Notes: a model not told the origin generated them from the sequence alone. A stretch of 64,000 nucleotides of DNA from an uncultured Gammaproteobacteria bacterium (GCA_963797555.1 CAWCPV010000004.1:544001-608000), one strand, 5' to 3'; numbered from the stretch's first letter, positions 2,534-30,608 are shown. Program-made: numbers and translations.

Positions 2534-2736
2534 TGCCCCTCTGCTCTTTGCGCTTTTACCCTTTGCCGCGGGCCGCGAGGCACGCGGTCGGCGCGTGAGA
2601 ACGACCGTCGGTACGGCCGCTTTACCGCCAAGAGCAGCCCGAGCCGTCCTGCCTGCCGATTTTCATGGCCTTCCATGCGCGGCTTCTGCGGAAAATGGCA
2701 CTAAACTGAGATAGTATGGGGTTCGGAGGTGCCGTG

Positions 2737-4062
2737 ATGCTTATAGAGTTCCGCGTCGAGAATCACCGTTCCATCCGGGACGAGCAGGCGCTCACCATGG
2801 AAGCGGGGCGAGTCGGTGACGAGATGGATCCCCGGCCGCGAAGCGTCAAAGGGCAGCCGGTGCGCCTGCTCCCGGTCGCCGCGCTGTACGGAGCCAACGC
2901 GAGCGGCAAGAGCAATCTACTCGGGGCACTCAGCTTCATGCGGGATGCGGTCATACAGTCCCACCGCGCTTGGCCACCTGAGGGCGGCGTTCCGCGGGAG
3001 CCGTTCGCCTGGGGCGCCAAGGCGACTGAGCCGTCGCTCTTCGAGGTAACGGTCTTGGTGGACGGCGTACGTTACCAGTACGGATTCGTCGTGGACGACC
3101 AGCGCTTCCTCGAGGAGTGGCTTTACGCGTGGCCCATCGGGCGCAAACAAACTTGGTTCGAACGAGAGAGCGACGACTTCACATTTGGCGAACACCTACT
3201 CGGTGAGAACCGCCTGGTCAAGCAGATTACGCGCTCCAATGCGCTTTTCCTGTCTGCCGCAGTGCAACACCGGCACGAGCAACTCGCCCCACTCTACCGG
3301 TGGTTCCGGACGCTGCATACGGTGAATATTGGCAGAAGGCGTCGCCTAATGCCGGGCATGCCGCCGGACCGCTGGGTCTGGCGAAGTCTCGATGCATCGC
3401 TCGGTTACGGCCCCCAACAGGTTGCTTTGTTCGATGAAGCAGATCCGGACGATCAACGCACCGAACCCCTGCGGGAATCCTTCCGCGAGCTTCTCCGCGC
3501 TGCCGACATTGGGATCGTGGACGTGAAGCTTGAAGAGGACCACGGGGAGACCCGTCGCGCAAGCGGTCTGAGGGGGGATTCTCGGGTCCGGCTGCTGTTG
3601 CGCCACCAGAGCAGCGAAGACGACGCTTGGCTTCCACTCGAGGAAGAGTCGCAAGGAACTCTCCGCCTGTTTCGGATCGGGCCGGTTCTGTTGGATACCC
3701 TCCGTAGTGGAGGTATGCTCCTTATCGATGAACTCGAAGCTAGTCTCCATCCCTTGCTCGCCCTTGAGATCGTTCGTCAGTTCAACGACCCTGCCAGGAA
3801 TCCGCGCAACGCACAGCTTGTCTTTACAACCCACGACACCAACTTACTCGGGACGGTAACTGGCAGTCCGCCGCTGCGGCGCGACCAGATTTGGCTCACC
3901 GAAAAGGACCACGAAGGGGCCACCTGCCTGTACCCTTTGACGGATTACAAACCCCGCAAGGCCGAGAACTTAGAACGCGGTTACCTTCAGGGTCGCTACG
4001 GTGCGATCCCCTTCTTAGGAGATTTGGCGAAGATCGGGGGATTACCGGCTAGTGGCGAGTAA
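2737..4062 (+). CDS. AAA_21/ABC-type ATPase (RloA/AbiLi-like)
   Basis: MLIEFRVENHRSI start, Walker A YGANASGKSN, signature ESQGT, Walker B LIDELEASLHP, QLVFTTH, YLQGRYGAIP; GGAGG RBS at 2725. Confidence 0.9.
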   Translation: MLIEFRVENHRSIRDEQALTMEAGRVGDEMDPRPRSVKGQPVRLLPVAALYGANASGKSNLLGALSFMRDAVIQSHRAWPPEGGVPREPFAWGAKATEPSLFEVTVLVDGVRYQYGFVVDDQRFLEEWLYAWPIGRKQTWFERESDDFTFGEHLLGENRLVKQITRSNALFLSAAVQHRHEQLAPLYRWFRTLHTVNIGRRRRLMPGMPPDRWVWRSLDASLGYGPQQVALFDEADPDDQRTEPLRESFRELLRAADIGIVDVKLEEDHGETRRASGLRGDSRVRLLLRHQSSEDDAWLPLEEESQGTLRLFRIGPVLLDTLRSGGMLLIDELEASLHPLLALEIVRQFNDPARNPRNAQLVFTTHDTNLLGTVTGSPPLRRDQIWLTEKDHEGATCLYPLTDYKPRKAENLERGYLQGRYGAIPFLGDLAKIGGLPASGE

Positions 4063-5059: not shown

Positions 5060-7574
5060 ATGACCGCGAGGAGACTGGGCCTTCCGGTAGTCGTCTTTGG
5101 GTTGGGGGCAATCATCTTTGCGTGCAGCACGCTCGTTCGCCACGGACCGACCTGCGGCAGCGGCGCGGGACTGGTGAAAGACGAGGCCCTGTGCGTCGGG
5201 CGGAAAGCGGAAAGCTTTCCGGCTGCGGACGAGGATTACTTCCGGGACATGGACTACGGGGTGACCCAGCGTCCGGAGCAGGTCGCCGCCGCGCTCGATC
5301 CCAACCTTCCGGGGATCTCACCGCACGACGCGGTGAGTGCGGTCGTCAAGGGGCGCAACAACTGGATCGTCTGGACCGGGGGTGACGACCGTCTGTGGGA
5401 CGTTCCTGACGACCAAGACCGTCGGCAATCTGGACTTCCTGAAGACGCTCTCGAACCACCCCAGTCTCAATTACAGCCGCGACAACCGCTGGCGTTATCT
5501 CGGCCTGGTCAACGAGCCGTGCTTCCGCAAGGCGACGGGACCGCGAAAGGATCGCTACGGTCTCTGGCTCGACGAGCGTGCGGAAGGCTGTGCGCCGGAC
5601 CCGTTCGAGAACGAGCAAAAGTATCCGGGGGTGGGGATCGGCGCCCGGGGCAAGAACATCCCCGTCGGCTCCTATTACGGCTATGCGAGCGGAATCGTGG
5701 GGCTGCGGCTGTTCCCCAACCCCGACTTCGACGAGGCGGCCGAAAAACGCTGGGACCCCGTGCGTTACTACGAGGATCCGAGCTATTACAACGACAAGAG
5801 CCTGGTTCGTCCCTACCGGGTGGGCATGTCCTGCGCCTTCTGCCACGTCGGACCGAATCCGGCCAACCCGCCCAAGGACCCTGAGAACCCCAAGTGGGAG
5901 AACCTCAATTCCAACGTCGGCGCCCAGTATTTCTGGGTGGACCGGATCTTTGTGTGGAACGTCGACGAGTCGAGCTTCCCCTATCAGCTCTTCCACACCT
6001 CCCGCCCGGGCGCCCTGGACACGTCATTCGTCTCCACCGACTACATGAACAACCCGCGGACGATGAACGCGGTTTACGCGCTCGGAGCCCGCATGGCCAT
6101 CGCCAGACGGCTGGGCAAGGAGCGTCTGGCGGGCGGTGAGCTGAACAATGAGCAGCTCAACCCGTACGTCCCCGCGGGCAGCCCGCTCGCCAAGTTCTAC
6201 GAGGCGCCGGATGCGGTCTGGACGCCGCGGGTCCTAAAGGACGGCTCGGATTCCGTCGGGGCGCTCGGGGCGCTGAACCGGGTCTTCGTGAATATCGGCC
6301 TGTTCAGCGAAGAATGGCTGGAGCACTTCATCCCGCTGGTCGGGGGTACCGGTTTTACGCCATTTCCGATCGCCACCGCCGACAAGAACTCGAGCTTCTG
6401 GAGGGCCACCGAGGCGCAGACCCCCGACGTTGCGCTGTTCTTCCTCGCGACCGGTCAGCCGGATTACCTCAGCAACGCGCCTGGCGGACAAGCATACCTG
6501 ACGGCCGACCGCAGAACACTGACCCGCGGAAAGGTGGTCTTCGCGGAGCGCTGCGCCCGCTGCCATTCGAGCAAGCTGCCCGAAAAGGCGTTCCGCTTCT
6601 TCCCGGACGACGGCTGCGTGGGACCCGGCTATCTCAAGTGCTGGAGCGACTACTGGACGTGGACCAAGAGCGCGGACTTCAAGCGCGAGATGCGGAGAAT
6701 CGTGCTCGCGGACGACTTCCTGCACGACAACTTCCTGTCCACCGACCTGCGCGTGCCGGTCACCCTGCTGGAGACGAACGCCTGCTCCTCGCTGGCGACC
6801 AATGCGTTGGCCGGGGACATCTGGGACAACTTCTCCTCCCAGTCCTACAAGGCGCTGCCCTCCGTCGGCAAGATCATGGTGCATCACCCGATCACCGGGG
6901 AGCCGCGCGAATACACCATGCCGGCGGGCGGCCGGGGCTACATCCGTCCCCCATCCCTTATCAGCGTGTGGTCGACCGCGCCGTTTCTCCTCAACAACAG
7001 CCTGGGCGACTTCTACTGGTCGGGGTCGGTCGCGGACCGGATGAAGTCCTTCGACAGCGGCATCGAGCAGCTCCTGTGGCCGGAGCGACGCAAAGGCAGC
7101 CGGCGGTACATGACGGCCTCGGGCAAGACCGTTCCCGGCATCGTCGACGTGACGACCGCAACCAGTTACCTGCGGGTGCCCACCGGCTATCTTCCCGATT
7201 TCCTGCAACCCCTCGTGGGTCCGTTGAGTACCGTCAAGCCCTGGCTGTTCGGACAGGAAGGCATCGAGATCGGCCCGATACCGAAGGGCACGCCGATCAA
7301 TCTCCTGTCCAACATCGATCTGGAGCGCAAGCCCGAAGTCATCGACGTGCTTCTCAAGGCCAAGAGAGAGCTCAAGGCGCTGCCGCGGGACGCCACTGAC
7401 GCGCAGGCGCGCCAGGCCTTCGCCGACCTGGTCGATCCGCTCGTCGCCGTCAGCAAGTGCCCGGACTATGTCGTGAATCGGGGCCACTACTTCGGCACCG
7501 ATTACTTCAAGGAGGAGCCCGGCCTCGGCGACGCGGACAAGCGGGCCTTGATCGAGTTTCTGAAGACGATGTAG
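5060..7574 (+). CDS. Large exported diheme cytochrome c (RoxA/MauG-like superfamily); frameshift near 5400
   Basis: Signal/lipoprotein-like N-terminus; CAFCH and CARCH heme motifs; PPSLISVWSTAPFLLNNS; C-terminal DKRALIEFLKTM similar to the downstream paralogues. Confidence 0.75.
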
Positions 7575-18510: not shown

Positions 18511-19093
18511 TCACCGCCTCGAGCCTAACGCCATGGGCGATGCCAGGCTCCGAAGGCTGTCGCGCAGCAGCTTCCCTACCGAGCTCCTGGGCAGGCGGTC
18601 GACGAAGGTCACCGCCGTGGGCGCTTGGTAGGGGGGAAGGTGCGCTCGGCCGAACGCGACGATGTCCTCCTCGGTCGCCGGCGCGCCAGCGGCACGCACG
18701 ACGATGGCGACCGTGACCTCGCCGCGACCGTCGGCGTCGACATGCACGACGCCGACGTTGGCGATCGAGGGGTGTTCGAGCAAGACCCGCTCCACGTCGC
18801 CGGGGTAGACCGCGCGCCCTTCCGAGAGGAAACGGTCCGCCACCCGGTCGACGATCCAGACGTACCCGTCGTCGTCGGTGCGCGCGGCGTCCCCGGTTCG
18901 CAGCCATCCGTCGGATGACAGCACCGCCGACGTGGCCTCGGGATCGTTCCAGTATCCGGCCATCACGTTCGGGCCGCGCACCAGCAGCTCACCCGTCTCC
19001 CCCGACGCGACCGGTGCGCCGTCAGGGCCAACGATCTGCACGTCGACCAAGAGCGGCGGCCGTCCGGCGGACCCGATCTTCGCGAGCATGGCC
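18511..19093 (-). pseudogene. Acyl-CoA synthetase (AMP-binding) C-terminal fragment
   Basis: GSAGRP, GELLVRGPNVMAGYW, DGWLRTGD, VYPGDVE, LPRSSVGK; N-terminal part absent, cut at the RAYT inverted repeat. Confidence 0.85.
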
Positions 19094-19910
19094 AAAGGGG
19101 CCAGGCTCGGATATCCTGTTGCACAAAGTGGATTCATACCGCCAGTGCTCCCTGGCCTGGGTCATGTGCGACGGAGTCGTCTCGCCTGGCACGCGGCCTG
19201 CCTCGCGGCTTCGGTTCCCGCCGCTGGCCCGTCACTGCCTCAATCTTGGCATAAAAACCGTGCATTGCCCAAAGGCTGATTCTGATTCAGCGCCAGCCGT
19301 AGGTCGTTGATCGCTTCTTGGTCCAGTTGCGCCCGGAACAGGCTCCGGTAGGCAGCCTGCCTTTCCTTCGCCTCCCTGCCCAGCGACAGATACAGAGGAT
19401 GCGGGGTGAAATACGGGTTGACCTGCCCCAGGGCATTGTGACGGTAGCTCGTCCAGCGGTAATGCGCAGGATCATCGATCATGGCTGCCCATGTAGGGGG
19501 TTGAGCTCGATGTATCGCTGGCAGGCAAGCAGGTAGGTTTCGGCTTGGATCAGCGAGGATTTGTAACGGCTATCCCATAGGGTGCGGTCCGGCGGTAGGT
19601 GGTGTTGATGTACTGCACGTAGCGCCGCCCCAAGGCAATGATCAGCCGGGGGACGGCTCCGGCATGCTCGGGGCTCAGAAGCAGGTGGACATGGTTGGTC
19701 ATCAACGCGTAGGCGTGAAGCGCGCACCGCTCTTTCTTCAACGCCTCGCCCAACCAGTGGAGGTAGGCCTGATAATCTCTTCGCCAAAGAAGCACGGTTC
19801 GCGGTTGTGCCCGCGTTGCACGATGTGCAGCGGTACGCCATCAAGATGGATGCGGGGGCGGCGGGGCACATTGAAGTATCATAAGCAAATACTTCGACCC
19901 TGGCCCCTTT
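19094..19910 (-). mobile_element. RAYT (REP-associated tyrosine transposase, Y1 HUH) element with 16-bp inverted ends; ORF ~19134..19869 frameshifted
   Basis: PRRPRIHLDGVPLHIVQRGHNREPCF, AYALMTNHVHLL, RYIELNP, YRWTSY; ends aaaggggccaggctcg / cgaccctggccccttt (15/16 inverted match). Confidence 0.85.
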
Positions 19911-19930
19911 GGCCCCTCCTTTGGCCCCCT

Positions 19931-20316
19931 AGGATGGCCTTGTCGCGCTCCAGCGCCTCGATCCGCCGGTCCTTGGCATCCTTGAGCGTCTTGCGACCAG
20001 GCTTCTTAGGTGCAAGCCCGGCCTCGCCTTCACGCTCGAGCTGCACACGCCAGGCTGCTAACTGGGAGCTGTACAGTCGCTCTCGACGCAGCAGCGCCGC
20101 CAGTGCTCCGCGTTCACTGCAAACCTCGGCCTCGGCCAAGATACGTTGCTTGTCCTCGGCCGAGAAGCGCCGGCGCAACCGCCGATCATGCTCAGGGTTG
20201 GCTACCACCTCAGTACCGCTTCCAACTGAAACAGGCTTGGGCATGACATCCTCCAGTGCGCCCTCGAATCATACTGACATTTCAAGAAACCCGTGTCTCA
20301 GTCATTATTGGCACAG
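19931..20316 (-). pseudogene. IS3-family orfA fragment with probable left end
   Basis: RRRFSAEDKQRILAEA..LLRRERLYSSQLAAWR; truncated at tggcccc repeats; TG-starting end tgtgccaataatgactgagacac. Confidence 0.75.
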
Positions 20317-20320
20317 AGGG

Positions 20321-20698
20321 GATGTATCGCTGGCAGGCAAGCACATGTCCACCTGCTTCTGACGCCCGAGCCGTCCCCCGGCTGATCATTGCCTTGGGGC
20401 GGCGCTATGTGCAGTACATCAACACCACCTACCGCCGGACGGGCACCCTATGGGATAGCCGTTACAAATCCTCGCTGATCCAAGTTTGGCGAAGAAGATT
20501 ATCAGGCCTACCTCCACTGGTTGGGCGAGGCGTTGAAGAAAGAGCGGTGCGCGCTTCACGCCTACGCGTTGATGACCAACCGAAGCACGGTTCGCGGTTG
20601 TGCCCGCGTTGCACGATGTGCAGCGGTACGCCATCAAGATGGATGCGGGGGCGGCGGGGCATTGACGTATATAGAAATAATTCGACCCTGGCCCCTTT
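20321..20698 (-). pseudogene. Second, scrambled RAYT copy (5' half with two internal segments inverted)
   Basis: Near-identical to 19509..19869 but 20344..20484 and 20485..20581 are reverse-complemented; same cgaccctggccccttt end at 20683..20698. Confidence 0.8.
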
Positions 20699-20726
20699 AA
20701 CCTATCCCTGGCCCCTTTAACCTATC
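20687..20726. repeat. 20-bp tandem repeat cctggcccctttaacctatc x2 at the RAYT end
   Basis: Seen directly in the sequence. Confidence 0.9.
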
Positions 20727-20735
20727 CATCCGGTC

Positions 20736-22043
20736 CTACAGTTCCGCATTAATGACCCGGCGGCGATACGGGCGCAGGATTCTGTGCAACACTGCGAGCC
20801 GCTCGACGTCGTCCTCGTATGTCGGCATTTGGAGAGCCCGGAGCATGAACGGCGGCCTACGGGACTTGCCTCGTGCAACAAGCTCCACATTCGTGCCCAC
20901 GGCGAGTCCCATGCCGGCTTCGATGCAAGTGTTCAGATTGTCGTCAGTGATATCAGCAAGTACCACGAACGCGTCGCATACCTTCTTCATGATGGCCGAC
21001 TGCAGGTTGTCCTCATGGATCTCGCTGCCGACAATTGTGGCCATGCCCGTTATCCGTTCAATCAGGTGTCGTATCGACCCGCCGGCCCGGGCCAGGTCGG
21101 AGTCCAGATCCATTGCACAGAAGACGTACTGGGGGGCAGGGGGCTCCCGCCACTGTTCCCACAGCCCGCTGAGGTTGACAGACACCGAAGTCGGGCATTG
21201 CGCCGCCGCAGTTTCCATCCGAAGCCAGCTAGCGTCGGAGCCATCGACGCGGCGGACCCGAGGGTCGGCGACTATCACGGTCGGGAGGTCGAGCCGGCCG
21301 GCTACGTCCATTTCATGAACGAAATAGTTGTATGGCCTCTCGCCAGCAGAGGCAGACTCAACTTCGCGAAAAGGGAGAATGCCGACAAAGGCTCCGCAGC
21401 TGGCGATGATGCGCTCGACCCTCTCGCCCATTCCGAAGCCCTTCTGGTCGCGAGCGTCTCCAATCAAGCGGAAGCCCTGTTGTACAAGAGCGCGGCACAC
21501 GGCACGCGCACTGTCGCTATCGTCAGGTTGCCAGGAACAGCTAATGAAGATGTCACGAGCAGTTGCTGGGTTCGGGCGCTTCTCGCCCGGGTAAAACGCT
21601 TGAATGATTGCGAGCGCGCTGTCGGGGTCGAGGCAAGGTCCGGGAAGGTCAATCCAGGTGGTGCCTCTGAGCAATTCTTCGACGTTCGCGTTAGGGAGGC
21701 GAAGTGCCACAACACGAAAGGCATCGTGGTTCGCGCGCTCGTCCATCGCCGAGTTGTATTCCGCCTTCACCCAACCCCGTGCGAGTGACTTGTCAGACGC
21801 CACCAGCAGTATCCCACGACATCGCTCTATAGCCGCTTGGAGATCGGTGGCGAGCAGCGCACCGCCAGCCAACTCTCGTGCGTCGTACCAGACGCGCAGG
21901 CCGGCATTCGTCAACCAGCGATCAAGCTGCGACACAAAAGCTGCGTCCTGATGCGCATGGCTCAGGAAGACGTTGAAGTCTCGCCTCTGTATCGGGAGAG
22001 TCATCGGGTCACCCGAGTACGCGGCACGAATTGCGTGGTCCAT
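20736..22043 (-). CDS. TIR-domain protein with a second TIR-like domain and a C-terminal nucleoside-deoxyribosyltransferase-like domain (gene cassette)
   Basis: FNVFLSHAHQD..WYD..WVKAEY; DIFISCSW; VLADITDDNLNTCIEAGMGLA; lies directly downstream of attC 22088..22145; start codon uncertain. Confidence 0.8.
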   Translation of the reverse strand: MDHAIRAAYSGDPMTLPIQRRDFNVFLSHAHQDAAFVSQLDRWLTNAGLRVWYDARELAGGALLATDLQAAIERCRGILLVASDKSLARGWVKAEYNSAMDERANHDAFRVVALRLPNANVEELLRGTTWIDLPGPCLDPDSALAIIQAFYPGEKRPNPATARDIFISCSWQPDDSDSARAVCRALVQQGFRLIGDARDQKGFGMGERVERIIASCGAFVGILPFREVESASAGERPYNYFVHEMDVAGRLDLPTVIVADPRVRRVDGSDASWLRMETAAAQCPTSVSVNLSGLWEQWREPPAPQYVFCAMDLDSDLARAGGSIRHLIERITGMATIVGSEIHEDNLQSAIMKKVCDAFVVLADITDDNLNTCIEAGMGLAVGTNVELVARGKSRRPPFMLRALQMPTYEDDVERLAVLHRILRPYRRRVINAEL

Positions 22044-22087
22044 TTGCGCATTGTCGGAGCTGATACGAGATCATACCTCCAGGTGCG

Positions 22088-22145
22088 GCATAACGTTGCG
22101 CTTAGCGGCGCGCTTCAGCGCGTCCGCTGAAGCAGCAAGTTAGGC
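22088..22145 (-). other. attC site
   Basis: Minus strand GCCTAAC-ttgct-gcttcagcggacgcgc-tgaa-gcgcgccgctaagc-gcaac-GTTATGC; 58-bp imperfect hairpin just after a stop codon. Confidence 0.9.
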
Positions 22146-22301
22146 GCGGCCTAGAATACCTCAATATCGTCACGGCTGAATCCGGCTAAATTTGCGATGA
22201 TCTGCTCGAGTCCCCACGTCGGCGAAACAAACGCCGCATCCAATCGGAAGCGATGGTTGTACAAGGTTCCGAAAGCGTTCAATCTCATCCTCGGGGCAGA
22301 T

Positions 22302-22353
22302 AACGAATAGCATTTTATCCGTCGTGCAACGAATAGCATTTTATCCGTCGTGC
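22302..22353. repeat. 26-bp tandem duplication aacgaatagcattttatccgtcgtgc x2 (half of the attC-like hairpin)
   Basis: Seen directly; present in copy 1 only. Confidence 0.9.
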
Positions 22354-22634
22354 GGCAGCATGATGGATAAAATGTGTTGAACTGAACCGCTGGATTCAGG
22401 CGACCGGCCTATGGGGATTGTATGGGGGCAGTCCCGCGTTGGGGCCGCTTGGGGTGTGGCTGGTCGGGTGGTTATGTGGTGCATGGACCGCTCGCTGGGC
22501 CTCGGTCTGGTGTGATGTCCCCCGCAGGGCACTATGGCAAAGGTGTGGTGGGCGGGTCAAGGGCTGGGGAAGGCCAAAGGGGACTGTGGCCGGCTTGCGG
22601 GGAAGCGGTCGGGGGCTTCGGCGGGTGATGGTCG

Positions 22635-23853
22635 TCATGAGAGCGGTGGGGGTCCGGTCGCTTTCGGGGTGGGGGGTGCAGCCCTGAGCGGCACCACGAG
22701 AACGATCCGCTGCAGGTGCCCTTCTCCGCAGTAGGGGCAGCGCTGGATATCGATGCCCGTCAGGCGCAGCATTGCCGCCCCCACCGACTCGGGTTCTCGT
22801 GGCGCTGGCGCTGGCTGGCCGAGCAGCGCCCGGCAACGGGCTAGGCGCTCGGTACGGTGGCGGTTGGCCAAGAGCCCGACATGGCGGATACGCATCAAGC
22901 CAGGTGGGAGCACATGGAGCAGGAAGCGGCGGATGAACTCCTCGGTCTCCAGACGCATCACTTTGATCCGATTGCCCCGGGCATAGTCCCGGTAGCGAAA
23001 GCGCACGGTGCCATCGTTGAGATCGAGGAGCCGCTCGTGGCTGATCGCCACCCGGTGGGTGTAGCGTCCCAGGTAGGCCAGCACCTGCTCGGGACCCGCA
23101 AATGGGGGCTTGGAGTAGACTACCCAGTCCTGGGAGTGCAGCTCGGTGAGAAAACGGTCAAAGCCCGCTGGCTCGGCGAGCCCCGCCAGCTCGCCGGCGA
23201 AATGCAGCTCACCGCGCCCGCGGGCCTGTTGCAGGATCTCCAGGTACTTGCCGCGGAACACCCGGGACAATGCCCGGACCGGAAACAGGAAGCCGCGCTT
23301 GGCGGGAATCCAGCGGCCGGCGTCGACGGAGAGCGCACCGCCGGTCACCACGCAGTGCACGTGGATATGCTGGCCGAGGTTCTGGCCCCAGGTGTGCAGC
23401 ACCAGGGTCGCGCCGAGTTCCCCACCGAGCCAGCGGGGATTGCGCCCAAAGTCCTGCAGTGTCTCGGAGGCGGCCCGGAACAGAGCATCGTAGATCTGCT
23501 TGGGATTGCCCTGCGCCAGCGCATTGAGAGCATGCGGCAGGGTGAACACCACGTGGAAGTACTCCACAGGGAGGAGCTCCCGCGCAGCGCGCCTGCAGCC
23601 AGTGCTCCTTGGCCAGCGTCTGGCACTTGGGGCAATGGCGGTTGCGGCAGGAGTGGTAGCGCAACTCGATGCGCCCGCAGCGGTCGCACTGCACCGCTTG
23701 AGCCCCCAGCAGGAGCGTGCGGCAGGCCTCGATGGCCCGCATCACCCGGTGCTGCTGAGCGCACAGCCGATGGGTTGCCCGGAAGTGCTCCCCGTGGGCC
23801 CGGAAGATATCCGCCAGCTCCAGCCGCCCCGCTCCCGCGGGACGGGTACACAC
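22635..23853 (-). CDS. IS91-family (Y2 HUH) transposase, copy 1, +1 frameshift near 23581
   Basis: SCRNRHCPKCQ zinc finger, YFHVVFTLP, LHTWG..HIHVH, YLGRYTHRVAIS, RIRHVGLLAN. Confidence 0.92.
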
Positions 23854-23856
23854 CGC

Positions 23857-24715
23857 CTAGAACTGCGTGGGGCTCTCAGGGATCTCCAGCAGGTCGAGCG
23901 GCGAGGCGGTGCCGGTCAGGCGCGGCCTCGCCAGGTGAAAGTAGCGCAGGGTGGTGCTGAGGTGCCCATGGCCCAACAGGCGCTGGATGGTGTGGAGAAT
24001 CCACTGCCGCCTCCAGCAGGTGGGTGGCGAAGGCATGCCTCAGCCCGTGGATGCCGCAGCGCTTGGTGATGCCCGCCCTGCGCTTGGCTGCATAATAAAT
24101 CTTCTGGGCCGAGCGGGGCTCGATGGGATGTTCCCCGTCGCGCAGAGGAAAGAGCCAGCGCTTGGGGCGGTAGGCCATCCAGTAACGGCGAAGCTCAAGG
24201 AGCAAGCGCTTGGAGAGCAGCGTGTAGCGGTCCTTCGCCCCCTTGGCCTGCTCCACCCGAAGGGCCATGCGCTCGCTGTCGATGTCCGAGACCTTGAGGT
24301 GCGCCACCTCGCTCACCCGCAGCCCCGCGCTGTAGGTGGCCATCAACAGCGCCCGGTGCTTGAGGTTCAAGGTCGCCTCGAACAGCCGCTTGATCTCCTC
24401 GCGGCTCAGGATCTCGGGCAGCCTGGAGGGCTGTCGGGGGCTCGGCAGACAGAACTCGGCCTCGGAGCGGCCCAAGCTGACTCGGTAGAAGAACCGCAGG
24501 CCATTGGCGATGATGTTACAGGTGCTGCTGGAAAGTCCCCGCTCCGGAAGCCCGTGCAGCAGGTAGCTCTGCACCTCGGGCTCGGAGATCTCGTCGGGCC
24601 TGTGTCGGTAGAACCTGGCCAGACCCCGTACCGCATCGAGATAAGCCTCGCGGGTGCGCACCGCCATCCCGCGCAGCACCATGTCGTCGTCCATCTTCGC
24701 GCGCAGCTCGCTCAT
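23857..24715 (-). CDS. Tyrosine recombinase with IntI-like N-terminal SAM domain, copy 1; frameshift at ~23999 puts LGH/catalytic Tyr out of frame
   Basis: LRG..RTREAY, LPEILSREEI, YSAGLRVSE, KGAKDR, HGLRHAFATHLLE; shifted frame reads DLHTIQRLLGHGHLSTTLRYFHL. Confidence 0.9.
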
Positions 24716-25148
24716 GACAGCCTCCTTTCAAGCAGAGAGTGGGAAAGACCCACGCAAAGCTTGGCAGAGCAGTCATGAGAGATCGCAAAACGTCAGGCGA
24801 AGATGAGGATCCGGCATAGCCGGTCGCATTACAGCGCCAAAATAGCGGAGCAGTTCAGCCAGAAACAATGCGAAAACGCCAAAAAAACCAAACCATCGCG
24901 TAAGCGGTTTAGTTCAACAATGAATGGGTGTGGAAGACTGAAGTTTCCCTTCTTTCGCCACCCACGTTCCCACCAGAATTCATTTCGGTAACGGCGACCG
25001 CCACCCGCACCATCGTTAGAACCCATCTGCTCGATAAAAGGTGTGATCTTCGAAATGGGCTGATCGTCGAAATGGCCGGCGTTATATCGAGATACCAGAC
25101 GGGATTTGCGCCTCCACCTCGACCTTGTTTCTTTGTTATCGCTATACC

Positions 25149-25852
25149 CATCCCATTACACACAACTTGAGGACACTCGTGTAACATCCTGACACAATGC
25201 TACAAGAGGGAGGGTGTCGGGATGAGCTGGGCAGCGGAGGAGTTCCAGGGCATTGACTTGGGCGACAAGCGGCTGGACAAGCGAGCGGTGTTGCTGGCCG
25301 AGCGGCTGGCGGAGAAGCCGACGGCGAGCATTCCAGGAGCGTGTGGGGGCTGGGCCGAGACCCAGGGGGCTTAACCGTGAGGCCGCCAGCTTCGAGCCAG
25401 CGGCCGAGATCATCGACTGGTATCGCGCCCGCTGGGAGATTGAACTCTTCTTCCACGTGCTGAAGAACGCCTGCCGCGTGGAGGCATTGCAGCTCAGCAC
25501 CATGGAACGCCTGGAACGGGCGCTGGCGCTATTCATGGTGGTCGCCTGGCGCATCGCCCGGCTGATGCGCCTGGGGCGCACCTGTCCGGACTTGGAGGCC
25601 GAGTGGTTGTTCGAGCGCGAGGAGTGGGAGGCAGCCTTCCTCCTGAACAAGAAACGCCCACCGAAGACGCCACCCCGACTGAACCAAGTGGTGCGTCTCA
25701 TCGCCAGGCTCGGCGGCTTCCTGGGGCGCAAGGGCGACGGCGAGCCCGGTGTGAAAACCCTCTGGCAAGGGCTGCAGCGGGTTATGGACTTCGCGGCAGG
25801 ACTGCACTACGCGCGTGAGGCCCAAGCCCTTTGACTTGTGTGTAACGAGATG
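25149..25852 (+). mobile_element. Internally deleted IS4-family (IS50/Tn5-like) element with terminal inverted repeats and a 9-bp target duplication
   Basis: Ends catcccattacacacaa / ttgtgtgtaacgagatg; TSD cgctatacc at 25140..25148 and 25853..25861; MSWAAEEF..LGDKRL N-terminus joined to YRARWEIE..FHVLK and LGGFLGRKGDGEPG C-terminus. Confidence 0.9.
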
Positions 25853-26153
25853 CGCTATACCATAGGGGGCAAATTCAAACTGACGCCCTTCGATCTCCCC
25901 TAGCAGCAAACATAGATGCTCGAGCGGCGTTTCCGTGAAACAGACGCACTTCTGAGACTCGGTCGCCTGGTGCGCCTCTTCGAGTCTTGTGACCGCTGGC
26001 CCGAACGGTGTTCGCGCCTCTACTCGCGTTGACTCGAGAATAGACTCAAGGCGCTCGCGCGCCGTCTGGTTTTCACCATCTCTCGTAAGGTGCACGAGAA
26101 AAGTGCCAAGGTCGGTTCTGCGCGCGATAACTTCGCGAATGTTCATGCGTGGT

Positions 26154-26216
26154 ACCTAACGTGCCAAGCTCAGGGGCCGCGACGTAGGAGCGGTCCCCTG
26201 GAGCGCAGAGTTAGGC
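26154..26216 (-). other. attC site
   Basis: Minus strand GCCTAAC...gctccaggggaccgc-tcctacgtc-gcggcccctgagc...GTTAGGT; includes the hicB stop codon. Confidence 0.88.
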
Positions 26217-26423
26217 CATGACCTCGACGTACTCCACATGGCTAGCCGGCTGCGGAATCGGCAGCCCGTCCTCGTGCATCCCCGCCAGGTGAAACTCAAT
26301 GGCTTCCCGGATGGCGACTTCAGTCTCCTCCACCGTGGCCCCAGTAGCCACACAACCGGGCAGGTCTGGAACGTAGGCCGAGTAGTTGCTCTCCGCCTTC
26401 TCAATCACGACCGCATAACGCAT
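26211..26423 (-). CDS. hicB: HicB antitoxin
   Basis: MRYAVVIEKAESNYSAYVPDLPGCVATGATVEE..IREAIEFHL. Confidence 0.92.
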   Translation of the reverse strand: MRYAVVIEKAESNYSAYVPDLPGCVATGATVEETEVAIREAIEFHLAGMHEDGLPIPQPASHVEYVEVMA

Positions 26424-26431
26424 GGCCACAC

Positions 26432-26620
26432 CTACTTTTTCCAACCCGCTTGCTTGAAGACACTGTTGAGCGTCCCAGGCGCCAGATCGTCGCTGGGCTT
26501 GCCCGCAACCGTCACGCGACCGGGCTTGGTCGGATGTTTCAACTGCCGATGGCTGCCCCGCGTTGCCACCACGTACCAGCCATCCTCCCGCAACTTCTCT
26601 AGCACCTCGCTGACCTTCAT
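26432..26620 (-). CDS. hicA: HicA toxin
   Basis: MKVSEVLEKLREDGW..RGSHRQLKHPTKPGRVTVAG..DLAPGTLNSVFKQAG. Confidence 0.92.
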   Translation of the reverse strand: MKVSEVLEKLREDGWYVVATRGSHRQLKHPTKPGRVTVAGKPSDDLAPGTLNSVFKQAGWKK

Positions 26621-26626
26621 CAAGCA

Positions 26627-26655
26627 AGCATACTGCCCCACTGAGAGGTGGTCAA
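26627..26655 (-). promoter_or_regulatory. Sigma70-type promoter inside the hicAB cassette
   Basis: TTGACC-17 bp-TATGCT, 6 bp upstream of the hicA ATG. Confidence 0.65.
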
Positions 26656-26675
26656 AACGGGCTGGATAGCGAGCG

Positions 26676-26753
26676 GCCCAACGCCGGTGCTCACCCGCGA
26701 CGACGGCGGCCGTCAGGCCGCCGGAGGCGTCGTGGTGGAGCGGCTGGTTAGGC
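26676..26753 (-). other. attC site
   Basis: Minus strand GCCTAAC..gctccaccacgacgcctccggcggcc-tgac-ggccgccgtcgtcgcgggtgagc..GTTGGGC; includes the upstream gene stop. Confidence 0.85.
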
Positions 26754-27236
26754 AGCGGAGCCAATTCCAGCATGCTCATTGATTTTCTCGAACCATATTT
26801 GAGCCATCTCTTTCGACATTGTGATGCCCCGTGGTAGAGGTTGCTCTGCTTCGATGTGGAGGTACAACGCGTGAGAAATCTCCGTGTACTCCTCGAAGAG
26901 TTCTGGGACGTTCGGTGCCCGCAGAATCAAACGCATGATTCGGAGCCAGCTATGAATCTGGTGTCGTCCGTCGCGGCTCTCAGTCTCTAGTAAGAGATAG
27001 ACGGACTGGTTGACCAGCGCTGGCAGAAGCGATCGAAGGTATGGAAAGTCCTTCTCCCAAAGTCCTTCAATCAACGCGATACCTACGCTTCGCTTTTGAG
27101 AACCGCCGGTCAGGTATTCCAGAGCCTGAATTAGAACCCGATGCCGCTGCTCGCCCCGACGCTCGAGGTACGCAGTGACGGCCAGGAGCCCAGCAACTAA
27201 CCAACCACCAACGGCAGCGATAACGGCTTCGGTCAC
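26748..27236 (-). CDS. Hypothetical cassette protein with an N-terminal TM helix
   Basis: GTG start after GTTAGGC and a GGAG RBS; stop inside the attC core; lower GC than the host genes. Confidence 0.7.
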   Translation of the reverse strand: MTEAVIAAVGGWLVAGLLAVTAYLERRGEQRHRVLIQALEYLTGGSQKRSVGIALIEGLWEKDFPYLRSLLPALVNQSVYLLLETESRDGRHQIHSWLRIMRLILRAPNVPELFEEYTEISHALYLHIEAEQPLPRGITMSKEMAQIWFEKINEHAGIGSAA

Positions 27237-27250
27237 GTCGAGTCTCCGCT

Positions 27251-27309
27251 GCCTAACGAATAGCATTTTATCCGTCGTGCGGCAGCATGATGGATAAAAT
27301 GTGTTGAAC
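27251..27309 (-). other. attC-like 59-bp hairpin terminating the Int/IS91 element (also at 22324..22382)
   Basis: Minus strand GTTCAAC-a-cattttatccatcatgc-tgcc-gcacgacggataaaatg-ctattc-GTTAGGC; RYYYAAC/GTTRRRY cores present, spacer register atypical. Confidence 0.7.
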
Positions 27310-27561
27310 TGAACCGCTGGATTCAGGCGACCGGCCTATGGGGATTGTATGGGGGCAGTCCCGCGTTGGGGCCGCTTGGGGTGTGGCTGGTCGGGTGGTT
27401 ATGTGGTGCATGGACCGCTCGCTGGGCCTCGGTCTGGTGTGATGTCCCCCGCAGGGCACTATGGCAAAGGTGTGGTGGGCGGGTCAAGGGCTGGGGAAGG
27501 CCAAAGGGGACTGTGGCCGGCTTGCGGGGAAGCGGTCGGGGGCTTCGGCGGGTGATGGTCG

Positions 27562-28779
27562 TCATGAGAGCGGTGGGGGTCCGGTCGCTTTCGGGGTGGG
27601 GGGTGCAGCCCTGAGCGGCACCACGAGAACGATCCGCTGCAGGTGCCCTTCTCCGCAGTAGGGGCAGCGCTGGATATCGATGCCCGTCAGGCGCAGCATT
27701 GCCGCCCCCACCGACTCGGGTTCTCGTGGCGCTGGCGCTGGCTGGCCGAGCAGCGCCCGGCAACGGGCTAGGCGCTCGGTACGGTGGCGGTTGGCCAAGA
27801 GCCCGACATGGCGGATACGCATCAAGCCAGGTGGGAGCACATGGAGCAGGAAGCGGCGGATGAACTCCTCGGTCTCCAGACGCATCACTTTGATCCGATT
27901 GCCCCGGGCATAGTCCCGGTAGCGAAAGCGCACGGTGCCATCGTTGAGATCGAGGAGCCGCTCGTGGCTGATCGCCACCCGGTGGGTGTAGCGTCCCAGG
28001 TAGGCCAGCACCTGCTCGGGACCCGCAAATGGGGGCTTGGAGTAGACTACCCAGTCCTGGGAGTGCAGCTCGGTGAGAAAACGGTCAAAGCCCGCTGGCT
28101 CGGCGAGCCCCGCCAGCTCGCCGGCGAAATGCAGCTCACCGCGCCCGCGGGCCTGTTGCAGGGTCTCCAGGTACTTGCCGCGGAACACCCGGGACAATGC
28201 CCGGACCGGAAACAGGAAGCCGCGCTTGGCGGGAATCCAGCGGCCGGCGTCGACGGAGAGCGCACCGCCGGTCACCACGCAGTGCACGTGGATATGCTGG
28301 CCGAGGTTCTGGCCCCAGGTGTGCAGCACCAGGGTCGCGCCGAGTTCCCCACCGAGCCAGCGGGGATTGCGCCCAAAGTCCTGCAGTGTCTCGGAGGCGG
28401 CCCGGAACAGAGCAGCGTAGATCTGCTTGGGATTGCCCTGCGCCAGCGCATTGAGAGCATGCGGCAGGGTGAACACCACGTGGAAGTACTCCACAGGGAG
28501 GAGCTCCGCGCAGCGCGCCTGCAGCCAGTGCTCCTTGGCCAGCGTCTGGCACTTGGGGCAATGGCGGTTGCGGCAGGAGTGGTAGCGCAACTCGATGCGC
28601 CCGCAGCGGTCGCACTGCACCGCTTGAGCCCCCAGCAGGAGCGTGCGGCAGGCCTCGATGGCCCGCATCACCCGGTGCTGCTGAGCGCACAGCCGATGGG
28701 TTGCCCGGAAGTGCTCCCCGTGGGCCCGGAAGATATCCGCCAGCTCCAGCCGCCCCGCTCCCGCGGGACGGGTACACAC
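27562..28779 (-). CDS. IS91-family (Y2 HUH) transposase, intact, 405 aa
   Basis: Zinc finger CRNRHCPKC, HUH motif HIHVH, YLGRY two-tyrosine motif. Confidence 0.95.
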   Translation of the reverse strand: MCTRPAGAGRLELADIFRAHGEHFRATHRLCAQQHRVMRAIEACRTLLLGAQAVQCDRCGRIELRYHSCRNRHCPKCQTLAKEHWLQARCAELLPVEYFHVVFTLPHALNALAQGNPKQIYAALFRAASETLQDFGRNPRWLGGELGATLVLHTWGQNLGQHIHVHCVVTGGALSVDAGRWIPAKRGFLFPVRALSRVFRGKYLETLQQARGRGELHFAGELAGLAEPAGFDRFLTELHSQDWVVYSKPPFAGPEQVLAYLGRYTHRVAISHERLLDLNDGTVRFRYRDYARGNRIKVMRLETEEFIRRFLLHVLPPGLMRIRHVGLLANRHRTERLARCRALLGQPAPAPREPESVGAAMLRLTGIDIQRCPYCGEGHLQRIVLVVPLRAAPPTPKATGPPPLS

Positions 28780-28782
28780 CGC

Positions 28783-29641
28783 CTAGAACTGCGTGGGGCT
28801 CTCAGGGATCTCCAGCAGGTCGAGCGGCGAGGCGGTGCCGGTCAGGCGCGGCCTCGCCAGGTGAAAGTAGCGCAGGGTGGTGCTGAGGTGCCCATGGCCC
28901 AACAGGCGCTGGATGGTGTGGAGAATCCACTGCCGCCTCCAGCAGGTGGGTGGCGAAGGCATGCCTCAGCCCGTGGATGCCGCAGCGCTTGGTGATGCCC
29001 GCCCTGCGCTTGGCTGCATAATAAATCTTCTGGGCCGAGCGGGGCTCGATGGGATGTTCCCCGTCGCGCAGAGGAAAGAGCCAGCGCTTGGGGCGGTAGG
29101 CCATCCAGTAACGGCGAAGCTCAAGGAGCAAGCGCTTGGAGAGCAGCGTGTAGCGGTCCTTCGCCCCCTTGGCCTGCTCCACCCGAAGGGCCATGCGCTC
29201 GCTGTCGATGTCCGAGACCTTGAGGTGCGCCACCTCGCTCACCCGCAGCCCCGCGCTGTAGGTGGCCATCAACAGCGCCCGGTGCTTGAGGTTCAAGGTC
29301 GCCTCGAACAGCCGCTTGATCTCCTCGCGGCTCAGGATCTCGGGCAGCCTGGAGGGCTGTCGGGGGCTCGGCAGACAGAACTCGGCCTCGGAGCGGCCCA
29401 AGCTGACTCGGTAGAAGAACCGCAGGCCATTGGCGATGATGTTACAGGTGCTGCTGGAAAGTCCCCGCTCCGGAAGCCCGTGCAGCAGGTAGCTCTGCAC
29501 CTCGGGCTCGGAGATCTCGTCGGGCCTGTGTCGGTAGAACCTGGCCAGACCCCGTACCGCATCGAGATAAGCCTCGCGGGTGCGCACCGCCATCCCGCGC
29601 AGCACCATGTCGTCGTCCATCTTCGCGCGCAGCTCGCTCAT
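28783..29641 (-). CDS. Tyrosine recombinase, copy 2, same frameshift (~28925)
   Basis: Translation identical to copy 1. Confidence 0.9.
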
Positions 29642-30022
29642 GACAGCCTCCTTTCAAGCAGAGAGTGGGAAAGACCCACGCAAAGCTTGGCAGAGCAGTC
29701 ATGAGAGATCGCAAAACGTCAGGCGAAGATGAGGATCCGGCATAGCCGGTCGCATTACAGCGCCAAAATAGCGGAGCAGTTCAGCCAGAAACAATGCGAA
29801 AACGCCAAAAAAACCAAACCACCGCGTAAGCGGTTTAGTTCAACAGTGAGTGGACCTTAAAGTGCGGTGGTTAAACACGGACATTGGTCCGTCTATCCCG
29901 CAGACCGTGCCCCGGCCGCCAGACCCTCCGGTTTGCTTCCAACGGAGTGATGTGCTTGGACGAACAAGCGGTTGCATGACACTCGATCACTGACGAGGCC
30001 CGGCAAAGCAGGCGTCCCTTCC

Positions 30023-30053
30023 GGGGATAGGCGGACATTGTCCGTCTATCCTC
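30023..30053. repeat. Near-perfect palindrome, with a partial direct copy at 29878..29902
   Basis: ggataggcggaca-t-tgtccgtctatcc; cggacattggtccgtctatcccgca upstream. Confidence 0.7.
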
Positions 30054-30608
30054 GCACGCGTCCACGGGGAAGGTTGTTCCGCTCAGGACACGGCCTCCCA
30101 GCGCGGCCTGATGTCGTCGACCGCCTGGACGGTGCCGGGTCCTCTCATGGCCTCCCATGTGCCTCCCGGTGGTCTGGTCCGCCACCTTTTCGGCCGCCCT
30201 CCCCCGAGGAGGACCGGCTTGCCCGTGCAACCCCCCGGAGGGAGCGCTTGGCGCTCTAACGAAGTCTGACGAGCGCGAGACGGGCTGTCAAGGCGGGCGC
30301 GCGGTTTACCGGGCGGCCGACGCCCGGGCCATCGGGCACCGGCGGGCGCACCTCGCTGGCAACGGCGCGCGGCGGCCGAGCAGGATGTCGACGCGGCTCA
30401 TGCCGGTAAAGCACATTGACGTCGGCCCCCAGCCGCGGCGCAAGGGCCAGGTCGGGCCGTTCGGGTCCCTTGTGCGCCGCCGAGGACGCGCAGCCTCACG
30501 GGCGAGCGTCGGCGCCCAGCACTGTCTGAGCCCGGCGTCCCGCCGGATCGGCGGATGGCAGGTCAGCGAGCGCTGGCGCAGGCAGAAGCCGGCCCTCGCT
30601 AGGCCCTG

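Follow-up and report, generated by a model that had tools for sequence, protein, structure and literature searches.

Elements of the IS91 family insert without duplicating their target. In the excerpted text of PMC13181058, a tetranucleotide (CTTG, GTTC, or GTCC, always with T at position 2) lies beside oriIS, and the word cleaved at terIS is CTCG in IS91 and GTTC in IS801, IS1294, and IS1294b; in IS801 and IS1294, GTTC serves both as the target word and as the ter word. The same excerpt describes subterminal palindromes at both ends and an insertion step in which only the bottom-strand single-stranded circle takes part, with no integrase involved. An extract of PMC5714925 gives the same rolling-circle outline for IS91-type elements, without a target word, and names two conserved tyrosines of their transposases as essential, and an extract of PMC9208149 counts 245 IS91-XerD couples across 15 phyla. 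Our literature searches found no paper on what the recombinase of such pairs does. ISfinder lists several elements with a tyrosine recombinase gene upstream of tnpA. Here we analyze a 64,000-nucleotide stretch of DNA (the window) from an uncultured Gammaproteobacteria bacterium (GCA_963797555.1 CAWCPV010000004.1:544001-608000), which contains two copies of a 2.6-kb IS91-family element that includes a tyrosine recombinase gene. The copies (copy 1, 27255..29845; copy 2, 22302..24918) are both on the minus strand and spaced 4.9 kb apart.

An insertion at one valine codon

Copy 2 is a simple insertion, without target duplication, at a single GTT codon (Val-192 of an intact orthologue) of an AbiGi-family gene. 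A homologue search with the N-terminal 98 residues encoded at 26146..25853 matched 115 longer proteins, of which 71 (counted by hand) carry the AbiGi domain PF10899. The intact orthologue (P0001, 242 amino acids) is 94% identical to the AbiGi piece of the window over its first 98 residues and is encoded by a contig (L030) that was found by a metagenome scan. In tblastn, residues 138–192 of P0001 match 25080..24916, and residues 192–206 match 22304..22260; the protein itself reads PHPFIVICPEDEIE with one valine and is continuous as PHPFIVICPE. The corresponding stretch of L030 is CCACACCCGTTCATTGTTATCTGCCCCGAGG (at greater length, CCGTTCATTGTTATCTGCCCC), with a single GTT where the window has GTT-element-GTT and no base lost or gained. 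The nucleotide alignment places nucleotide 573 of L030 at window position 24919 and nucleotide 574 at 22304, so that only the GTT is doubled, and the flanks are 88–95% identical. Because both the residues and the bases of the orthologue are contiguous across the insertion, the pieces on either side belong to one gene. The initial annotation of the window had proposed an empty site restoring PFIVICP in frame, PFIVICPE continuity in uninterrupted AbiGi homologues, and a GTT as the only sequence common to both ends, with no longer target-site duplication; the protein and the contig agree with it on each count.

The gene lies in three pieces on the minus strand. Piece A (25853..26146) encodes orthologue residues 1–98 and was delimited by the homologue search, tblastn, and nucleotide alignment. 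Piece B (24919..25148) covers residues 96–191 and has an internal ∼60-nucleotide deletion near 25081–25084, and piece C (22151..22304) covers residues 192–242 plus the stop codon, with a 2-nucleotide deletion at 22260/22261; both were placed by tblastn and alignment to L030. Besides copy 2, the gene has therefore suffered three lesions relative to L030, namely these two deletions and an IS4/Tn5-type remnant. The longer deletion corresponds to residues 117–137 of the orthologue and the shorter one to residues 206–207, and both shift the frame. The remnant is a 704-bp transposase gene fragment (25149..25852, plus strand; Pfam DDE_Tnp_1 and Dimer_Tnp_Tn5, and alignment), of which only the N- and C-terminal parts are left, with a 9-bp direct repeat on its two sides (25140..25148 and 25853..25861), of which L030 has one copy. 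The Pfam AbiGi model gave no match to the pieces in the window, even at E values up to 10, and the AbiGi name therefore rests on the homologues. P0001 scores 19.4 bits, below the gathering threshold of 22.4 bits, and P0003 (27.6 bits) and P0015 (27.9 bits) pass it. The target is an already decayed phage-defence gene, and the insertion itself is ordinary.

By its sequence, the element is a new member of the ISAzo26 group within the IS91 family; the gene pair as such is known and widespread. The transposase scores 446.3 bits against NF033538 (transpos_IS91, cut-off 125) and contains the Pfam domains Y2_Tnp (211 bits) and Zn_Tnp_IS91 (104 bits). Its 405-amino acid translation features an HUH-type histidine motif (QHIHVHCVV) and two tyrosines (AYLGRYTHRV), which by likeness are the putative catalytic residues. 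The closest named relative in a plasmid collection, 54% identical, bears the annotation “IS91-like element ISAzo26 family transposase”; it has a tyrosine recombinase gene directly upstream of the transposase gene and the same build of the ends. We collected 78 related loci from many phyla, with transposase identities of 44–59% (best segment). The integrase gene is adjacent and upstream in 70 of them; three offer too little upstream sequence, and five have room upstream with no integrase gene adjacent. A search of 21900..30000 against Rfam (E up to 0.1) gave no match. Elsewhere in the window genome, a distant integrase–transposase pair of the same family (G000:C7:145032-147016; 37 and 48% identity) has long open matches and could be an active relative.

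Under the joint model discussed below, copy 2 spans 22304..24917 (TTGAAC to CTATTCG, including an extra 26-bp terminal repeat), and sequence comparison places copy 1 at 27257..29844, both on the minus strand. Inside the element, the two copies differ by three single-nucleotide polymorphisms (SNPs; 28163 G/A, 28415 G/T, and 29822 C/T) and by an extra C at 23579 in copy 2. The Ile/Thr and Asp/Ala changes that the initial annotation had noticed in the transposase are two of the three SNPs. The flanks are unrelated directly outside the terminal AAC/GTT. The two copies are a real duplication, as the initial annotation had argued from the SNPs. In copy 1, the transposase gene is intact (27562..28779), whereas the integrase gene is frameshifted. 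In copy 2, the transposase gene (22635..23853, minus strand; Zn_Tnp_IS91 and Y2_Tnp in the domain search) is broken by the extra C, as the copy comparison shows. Upstream of it lies the pseudogene of an Xer/IntI-like tyrosine recombinase (23857..24715, minus strand; Phage_integrase and Phage_int_SAM_4). Its +1 frameshift is due to an extra base at 23998–23999, before the LHTIQRLLGH...Y segment, and the identical lesion is present in copy 1. Because both window copies share this frameshift, it probably predates their separation.

Copy 2 alone contains a 26-bp tandem duplication on the minus strand (22302..22327 = 22328..22353, together 22302..22353; found by sequence comparison), of which the unit consists of the 3′ arm of the terminal hairpin, the tail, and the GTT. 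A second case, L133 (∼2625..2670), is an unrelated relative in which 23 bp of the same region have been duplicated independently; the repeated stretch comprises the final 21–24 bases of the element and a TT. That the ori tip has been duplicated more than once suggests a side product of the mechanism, for example a re-insertion into the nick site of the element itself or an aborted product. The two insertion sites of the window are also alike beyond the GTT, reading CCATTCATTG^TTA and CCACTCACTG^TTA on the gene strand (the caret marks the joint) with 11 of 13 positions identical, when bases 24919..24928 and 29846..29855 are compared together with those after each hairpin end. The sites on contigs C17 and C7 of the same genome differ from these, and the likeness could reflect chance or an extended target preference.

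Element ends and bottom-strand pairing

On the minus strand, the junctions of copy 2 read cccattcatt-GTT-gaactaaac (GTT at 24918..24916) and gctattc-GTT-atctgcccc (GTT at 22304..22302), as the initial annotation had written them. We interpret the element as running from TT (or GT) followed by GAAC to its last base, inserted between the position of that last base and the following N-T; this is the simplest reading of the compared sequences. The best joint model for the window accordingly has TTGAAC...CTATTCG sitting between the G and the TT of the codon and rebuilding GTT on both sides. At the 5′ (ter-side) junction (24916..24918, minus strand; from junction comparison), the G would be target and the TT the first two bases of the element; at the 3′ (ori-side) junction (22302..22304, minus strand; from tblastn and alignment), the G would be the last base of the element and the TT target, forming codon Val-192. 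The interval 22302..24918 initially given for the element is right to within this triplet but adds the target's TT at one end and its G at the other.

The first 14 bases of the element form a terminal inverted repeat (24904..24917), which is GCGGTTTAGTTCAA on the plus strand and TTGAACTAAACCGC on the gene strand. A second, subterminal copy (TTGAACTGAACCGC; 22377..22390, plus strand) lies inboard of the hairpin at the other end, and both are conserved across the family. The ori-side subterminal hairpin (22336..22375) has 18 pairs, including G.T, when the plus (bottom) strand is folded, and its equivalent in copy 1 is 27263..27302. A small ter-side palindrome on the plus strand (24895..24908; ACCGC-GTAA-GCGGT in copy 1) was recognized by folding and copy comparison. 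The hairpin is part of the element, as first proposed.

Relatives throughout the family share this plan. Their 5′ tip reads N^TTGAACTAAACCGC on the gene strand, and in most of them the small GCGGT/ACCGC stem-loop comes next. The 3′ end consists of GCGGTTTAGTTCAA, one to a few bases, the hairpin, a 6-nucleotide tail, and one last base, usually followed by TT. The hairpins of relatives vary from 36 to ∼100 nucleotides, with pairing that persists though the sequence varies, and the tails include CTATTC, CTATAC, CTCTGC, and TTTTTC. One copy in the window genome (G000:C18:42943-45395; loci L003, L005, and L015) has a 64-nucleotide hairpin module at both ends, inverted. Its second module abuts the integrase-end repeat, which has the 3′-type repeat variant.

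Automatic calls of the hairpin end jittered by 1–3 nucleotides, and boundaries were therefore taken only from multi-copy comparisons. The window genome contains four long copies (two in the window and one each on C17 and C18) and fragments on C7, C8, and C13. Its integrase-end junctions are GTT^GAAC in all five cases, and its hairpin-end junctions are GTT in five of seven and GGT in two; TTAT, TTAG, or GTAG follows the joint, and the first bases of the element are TTGA. Among 19 3′ junctions from five multi-copy groups, the base before the joint does not vary inside a group (A in three groups, G in one, and CG-T in the remaining one), whereas the flank varies, and the 5′ flank base is variable. 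Head-to-tail arrays have one triplet only between units, with junctions TTTTTCA^TTGAAC (L160/L208), CTCTCTCA^GTGAAC (L199/L202), and TATACA^TTGAAC (L165). A fixed cut after the last base fits 7 of the 11 non-tandem 5′ junctions in two acidobacterial genomes (G001 and G003), and a cut one base further fits fewer. The copies on C17 and C18 combine a GTT junction with a GGT junction, and 8 of the 10 relatives that have both ends in a non-tandem context show two triplets with unlike middle bases. Because the triplets differ in this way, the GTTs at the junctions of copy 2 are not a duplication.

Several loci add observations on target sites and arrangement. In the two acidobacterial genomes (L192-L215 of G001 and L196-L210 of G003), 11 of 13 non-tandem 3′ flanks start with (G/T)TCAC, and several of these run on into a common CGAAA(T/A)AT sequence. 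Their 5′ counterparts are unrelated to one another. The target of the elements in these genomes seems to be the edge of a host repeat, and arrays with two or three head-to-tail units are found in G001 and at L165. At L158, 37-bp inverted copies (2769..2805 and 5552..5588) that resemble the 3′ part of a tRNA gene (GGTTCGAGTCC...) flank the element, which is inserted at G^TT between them.

The pairing of these ends is biased toward the bottom strand. When the stems of 36 distinct 3′ hairpins are walked inward, A.C on the gene strand (G.T on the bottom strand) occurs 22 times and the reverse once, next to 15 other mismatches and 467 Watson–Crick pairs. Comparison of the 5′ repeat with the inverted 3′ repeat in 27 distinct pairs gives 23 to 3 in favor of bottom-strand G.T, or 19 to 0 without L125 and L183, where the repeat calls are doubtful; both sets of counts come from related sequences and are not independent. 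The hairpin sequence of copy 1 folds at −14.5 kcal/mol on the plus strand (z −5.95) and at −10.2 kcal/mol on the minus strand (z −3.9), and the SNP of copy 2 at 24896 in the ter palindrome yields a T.G pair on the plus strand. Strand-biased deamination, acting on a bottom strand that is exposed, could contribute to the mismatch bias; under either cause the bottom strand spends time single-stranded. The integrated element separates the two repeats by 2.5 kb; pairing between them is thus most easily understood in a circle, in which the hairpin would lie between the two. Joint position and bottom-strand bias together point to a folded single-stranded junction as the probable working substrate.

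Routes of insertion

We consider it reasonably probable that the HUH/Y2 transposase made the insertion by an IS91-type route. Integron chemistry is not needed to explain the junctions, because integrase-free elements of the IS91 family show the same junction anatomy; the GTTC found at both junctions of IS801 and IS1294 has the same cause as the GTT here. On this route, the transposase would move the bottom strand (the plus strand of the window) by a rolling-circle, single-strand process, nicking beside the 3′ hairpin (ori) and terminating beside the 5′ repeat and the small palindrome (ter). The product would be a single-stranded circle with its two 14-nucleotide repeats paired, and the circle would then enter a target of the form N^TT or N^GT, a word similar to the circle junction itself. 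The integrase would act as an accessory factor and is broken here. We infer both the enzyme that makes the joints and the formation of a circle. The initial annotation had seen in copy 2 the footprint of integron-type chemistry at a non-att site. Its single-GTT target stands, but integron chemistry does not follow from it, as an IS91 HUH/Y2 transposase predicts the same junctions.

Several points weigh against the transposase as the enzyme of insertion. A fixed cut predicts that the base seen at tandem junctions is inherited, and 4 of the 11 non-tandem 5′ junctions of G001 and G003 deviate from it. One multi-copy group (G003_second) lacks the T that is invariant in the other four of five groups and has a different register. 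The excerpted account of canonical IS91 describes ends that are not inverted repeats (PMC13181058), and a plain IS91 model leaves the 14-nucleotide repeats over. In many phyla the integrase remains next to the transposase, and the relatives that were inspected have motifs that look catalytic; such conservation means that the integrase must serve the element in some way. Of the five loci with upstream room and no adjacent integrase, four with no integrase gene anywhere in the locus (L139, L170, L180, and L183, leaving out L121) were searched in their genomes, which contain at most two long copies and fragments; a multiplying integrase-less element was not seen among these four. In addition, integrase could have come in trans from the distant pair on C7 or from an intact copy since lost, and the integrase frameshift could have spread by gene conversion.

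It is possible, though doubtful, that the integrase itself performs the insertion. Integron cassettes and CTX phage integrate by folded single-strand exchange. By analogy, the transposase would make a single-stranded circle, the circle junction would fold into an attC-like structure, and the recombinase would exchange one strand. The fold would comprise a repeat stem (GTTCAAC/GTTGAAC), an unpaired spacer of 6–7 nucleotides, and a second stem with a variable tip; strand exchange would occur between G and TT with a GTT or GGT secondary site, and replication would complete the insertion. The position of the inferred joint (G^TT, or AA^C on the bottom strand) is consistent with this, as it falls at the inner end of the repeat stem beside the unpaired 6–7 nucleotides. 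Tyrosine recombinases cut, and cassette boundaries lie, at just such an inner end of a stem beside an unpaired stretch. The mismatch asymmetry likewise favors it, in that repeats 2.5 kb apart appear selected to pair on the bottom strand, and repeats of this kind are absent from the excerpt of PMC13181058 that describes canonical, integrase-less IS91. Further support comes from the conserved integrase gene in 70 of the 78 loci, from the multi-copy elements checked (L155, L160, L164, and L165), which all carry it, from the occurrence of tandem arrays, and from the IS91-like ISShvi3, which an extract of PMC9229058 places directly beside an attC site.

The affinities of the recombinase bear on both sides of this question. 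Among solved structures, its closest relative is the integron integrase VchIntIA (2a3v, E 5e-41), with the Xer proteins ranking behind, and its best NCBIfam models are “tyrosine recombinase/integron integrase” and TIGR02249. However, both curated cut-offs are missed (TIGR02249 scores of 218 for L135, 174 for L122, and 129 for the window, cut-off 265). The integrase of L135 aligns with 2a3v in two stretches and has 22 residues where 2a3v has 64 (180–243); the IntI-specific insertion between the catalytic patches is thus absent. The state of the gene also argues against an integrase-driven insertion. In the window genome, it is broken in all four copies, by the frameshift common to the window pair and by different internal deletions in C17 and C18, and yet the element was duplicated; the transposase is intact in three of the four. 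By its sequence motifs, the transposase retains the HUH-like histidines and both tyrosines and so could cut and join alone. The folded window hairpin has no extrahelical bases, and all junction features are equally predicted by the integrase-free IS91 mechanism.

A tentative and rather unlikely proposal divides the labor, with the HUH transposase rolling off the circle and an IntI-like recombinase that lacks the integron-specific domain inserting its attC-like fold at G^TT sites. If true, these would be self-mobilizing cassette-like elements, a living link between rolling-circle transposons and the single-strand recombination of integrons and CTX.

It is very improbable that copy 2 is an assembly artefact, such as a misplaced repeat or a collapsed or chimeric join. 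The assembly has 20 contigs and is an estimated 84.6% complete, which leaves room for error, and read support was sought in low-depth Logan short contigs of four runs (X1-X4), the best of which hold 14–31% of the sampled words. One 151-nucleotide contig of X3 matches 22213..22363 without differences and bridges the hairpin-end junction together with the 26-bp repeat, and an exact 221-nucleotide contig of X2 contains the integrase frameshift stretch, for which either copy could be the source. Contigs do not cover 24750..25091, so the integrase-end junction falls outside this check. The extra C at 23579 is in no contig of runs X1-X4; two contigs over this position lack it and may derive from copy 1. 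The runs may be the source sample of the assembly and are therefore not independent support, but the flanks are adjacent to the base in the independent orthologous contig L030, and the copies differ by SNPs and the terminal repeat. Least credible of all is an ordinary 3-bp target-site duplication from staggered cuts, with the element ending just inside the GTTs: in each of copies 1 and 2 the triplets of the two ends are identical, and the empty site contains a single one, but GTT or GGT recurs at all 12 junctions of the window genome at unrelated sites (five of five integrase-end, seven of seven hairpin-end), the triplets differ within the C17 and C18 copies and in 8 of 10 relatives, tandem units share a single triplet, and the element contains no DDE transposase.

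Neighborhood and comparison with known systems

The surroundings of copy 2 contain further candidate defence genes. Directly downstream of the AbiGi pseudogene, 20736..22043 (minus strand) encodes a 435-amino acid protein with an N-terminal TIR_2 domain and weak PADLOC matches to TIR defence proteins. A HicA-like open reading frame (26211..26779, minus strand; PADLOC, E 1e-4) overlaps a small open reading frame that is HicB-like by eye. Together with the AbiGi gene, this region looks like a defence/toxin–antitoxin islet riddled with insertion sequences. The segment 19240..20720 contains rearranged, partly repeated fragments of open reading frames (e.g. YRWTSYRHNALGQ and YINTTYRRTGTLWDSRYKSSLIQ), which by eye look like pieces of a Y1/REP-associated transposase.

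The wider interest of the element lies in the widespread pairing of an IS91-type transposase with an Xer/IntI-like recombinase. Two results are concrete and testable, namely the joint between the last base and TT and the bottom-strand bias both within the hairpin and between the distant repeats. The IntI-like recombinase of this IS91 branch and the signs of a folded bottom-strand junction merit follow-up.

Similar to canonical IS91, IS801, and IS1294, the element has a transposase of the same family, no target duplication, an ori word with T at position 2, a similar ter word, subterminal palindromes, and a bottom strand that is probably the active one. As in canonical IS91, ter lies upstream of the genes with a small palindrome and ori downstream with a strong hairpin, an arrangement that is kept in the relatives. 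In contrast to the element described here, the three canonical elements have no integrase gene, and IS91 has orf121 instead. The element also stands apart through its 14-nucleotide repeats, one forming the 5′ tip and the other on the inner side of the 3′ hairpin, which show the pairing bias of the bottom strand.

Integron cassettes are inserted by IntI, which recombines attC with attI or with secondary GNT sites. An attC site consists of R boxes (RYYYAAC/GTTRRRY), an unpaired spacer, a second paired box, and a variable tip. The predicted circular junction of our element, GTTCAAC...hairpin...G^TTGAAC, would resemble it in its unpaired spacer, variable stem-loop, and favored bottom strand. As in an integron cassette, the joint lies between G and TT, and the linear element runs from TT-GAAC, which fits TTRRRY, to G. 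Unlike a cassette, it carries its own recombinase and an HUH transposase and is not promoterless, its hairpin has no extrahelical bases, and the IntI insertion is absent. No attI, promoter, or cassette array was seen in 19000..30300, where no dedicated attC-array or attI search was made.

Elements of the IS200/IS605 group (Y1 HUH) have hairpins near both ends and insert strand-specifically without duplication. An extract of PMC7923331 adds a tetranucleotide target that flanks one end. They differ from our element in transposase family and size, and that family has neither an integrase nor a proposed rolling-circle copy step. The integration of CTX phage into dif by XerCD combines a rolling-circle HUH protein, single-stranded circles, paired inverted half-sites, exchange of one strand, and tandem arrays. 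Unlike CTX, which is mentioned in an extract of PMC9345347, the element encodes its recombinase itself, and its target is a short degenerate word and not dif.

The closest counterpart is ISAzo26 itself (Aromatoleum aromaticum EbN1 plasmid 2, NC_006824). Our literature searches found no paper naming it, and within that search its mechanism appears unstudied. Its hairpin is longer and of other sequence, its last base is A where the window has G, and the integrase of the window element is broken. The gene order is the same, with the tyrosine recombinase followed by the IS91-type transposase, and the ends match, with G^TTGGACTAAACCGC at the 5′ end and GCGGTTCAGTCCAA, a long hairpin, a ctctgc tail, and A^TT at the 3′ end.

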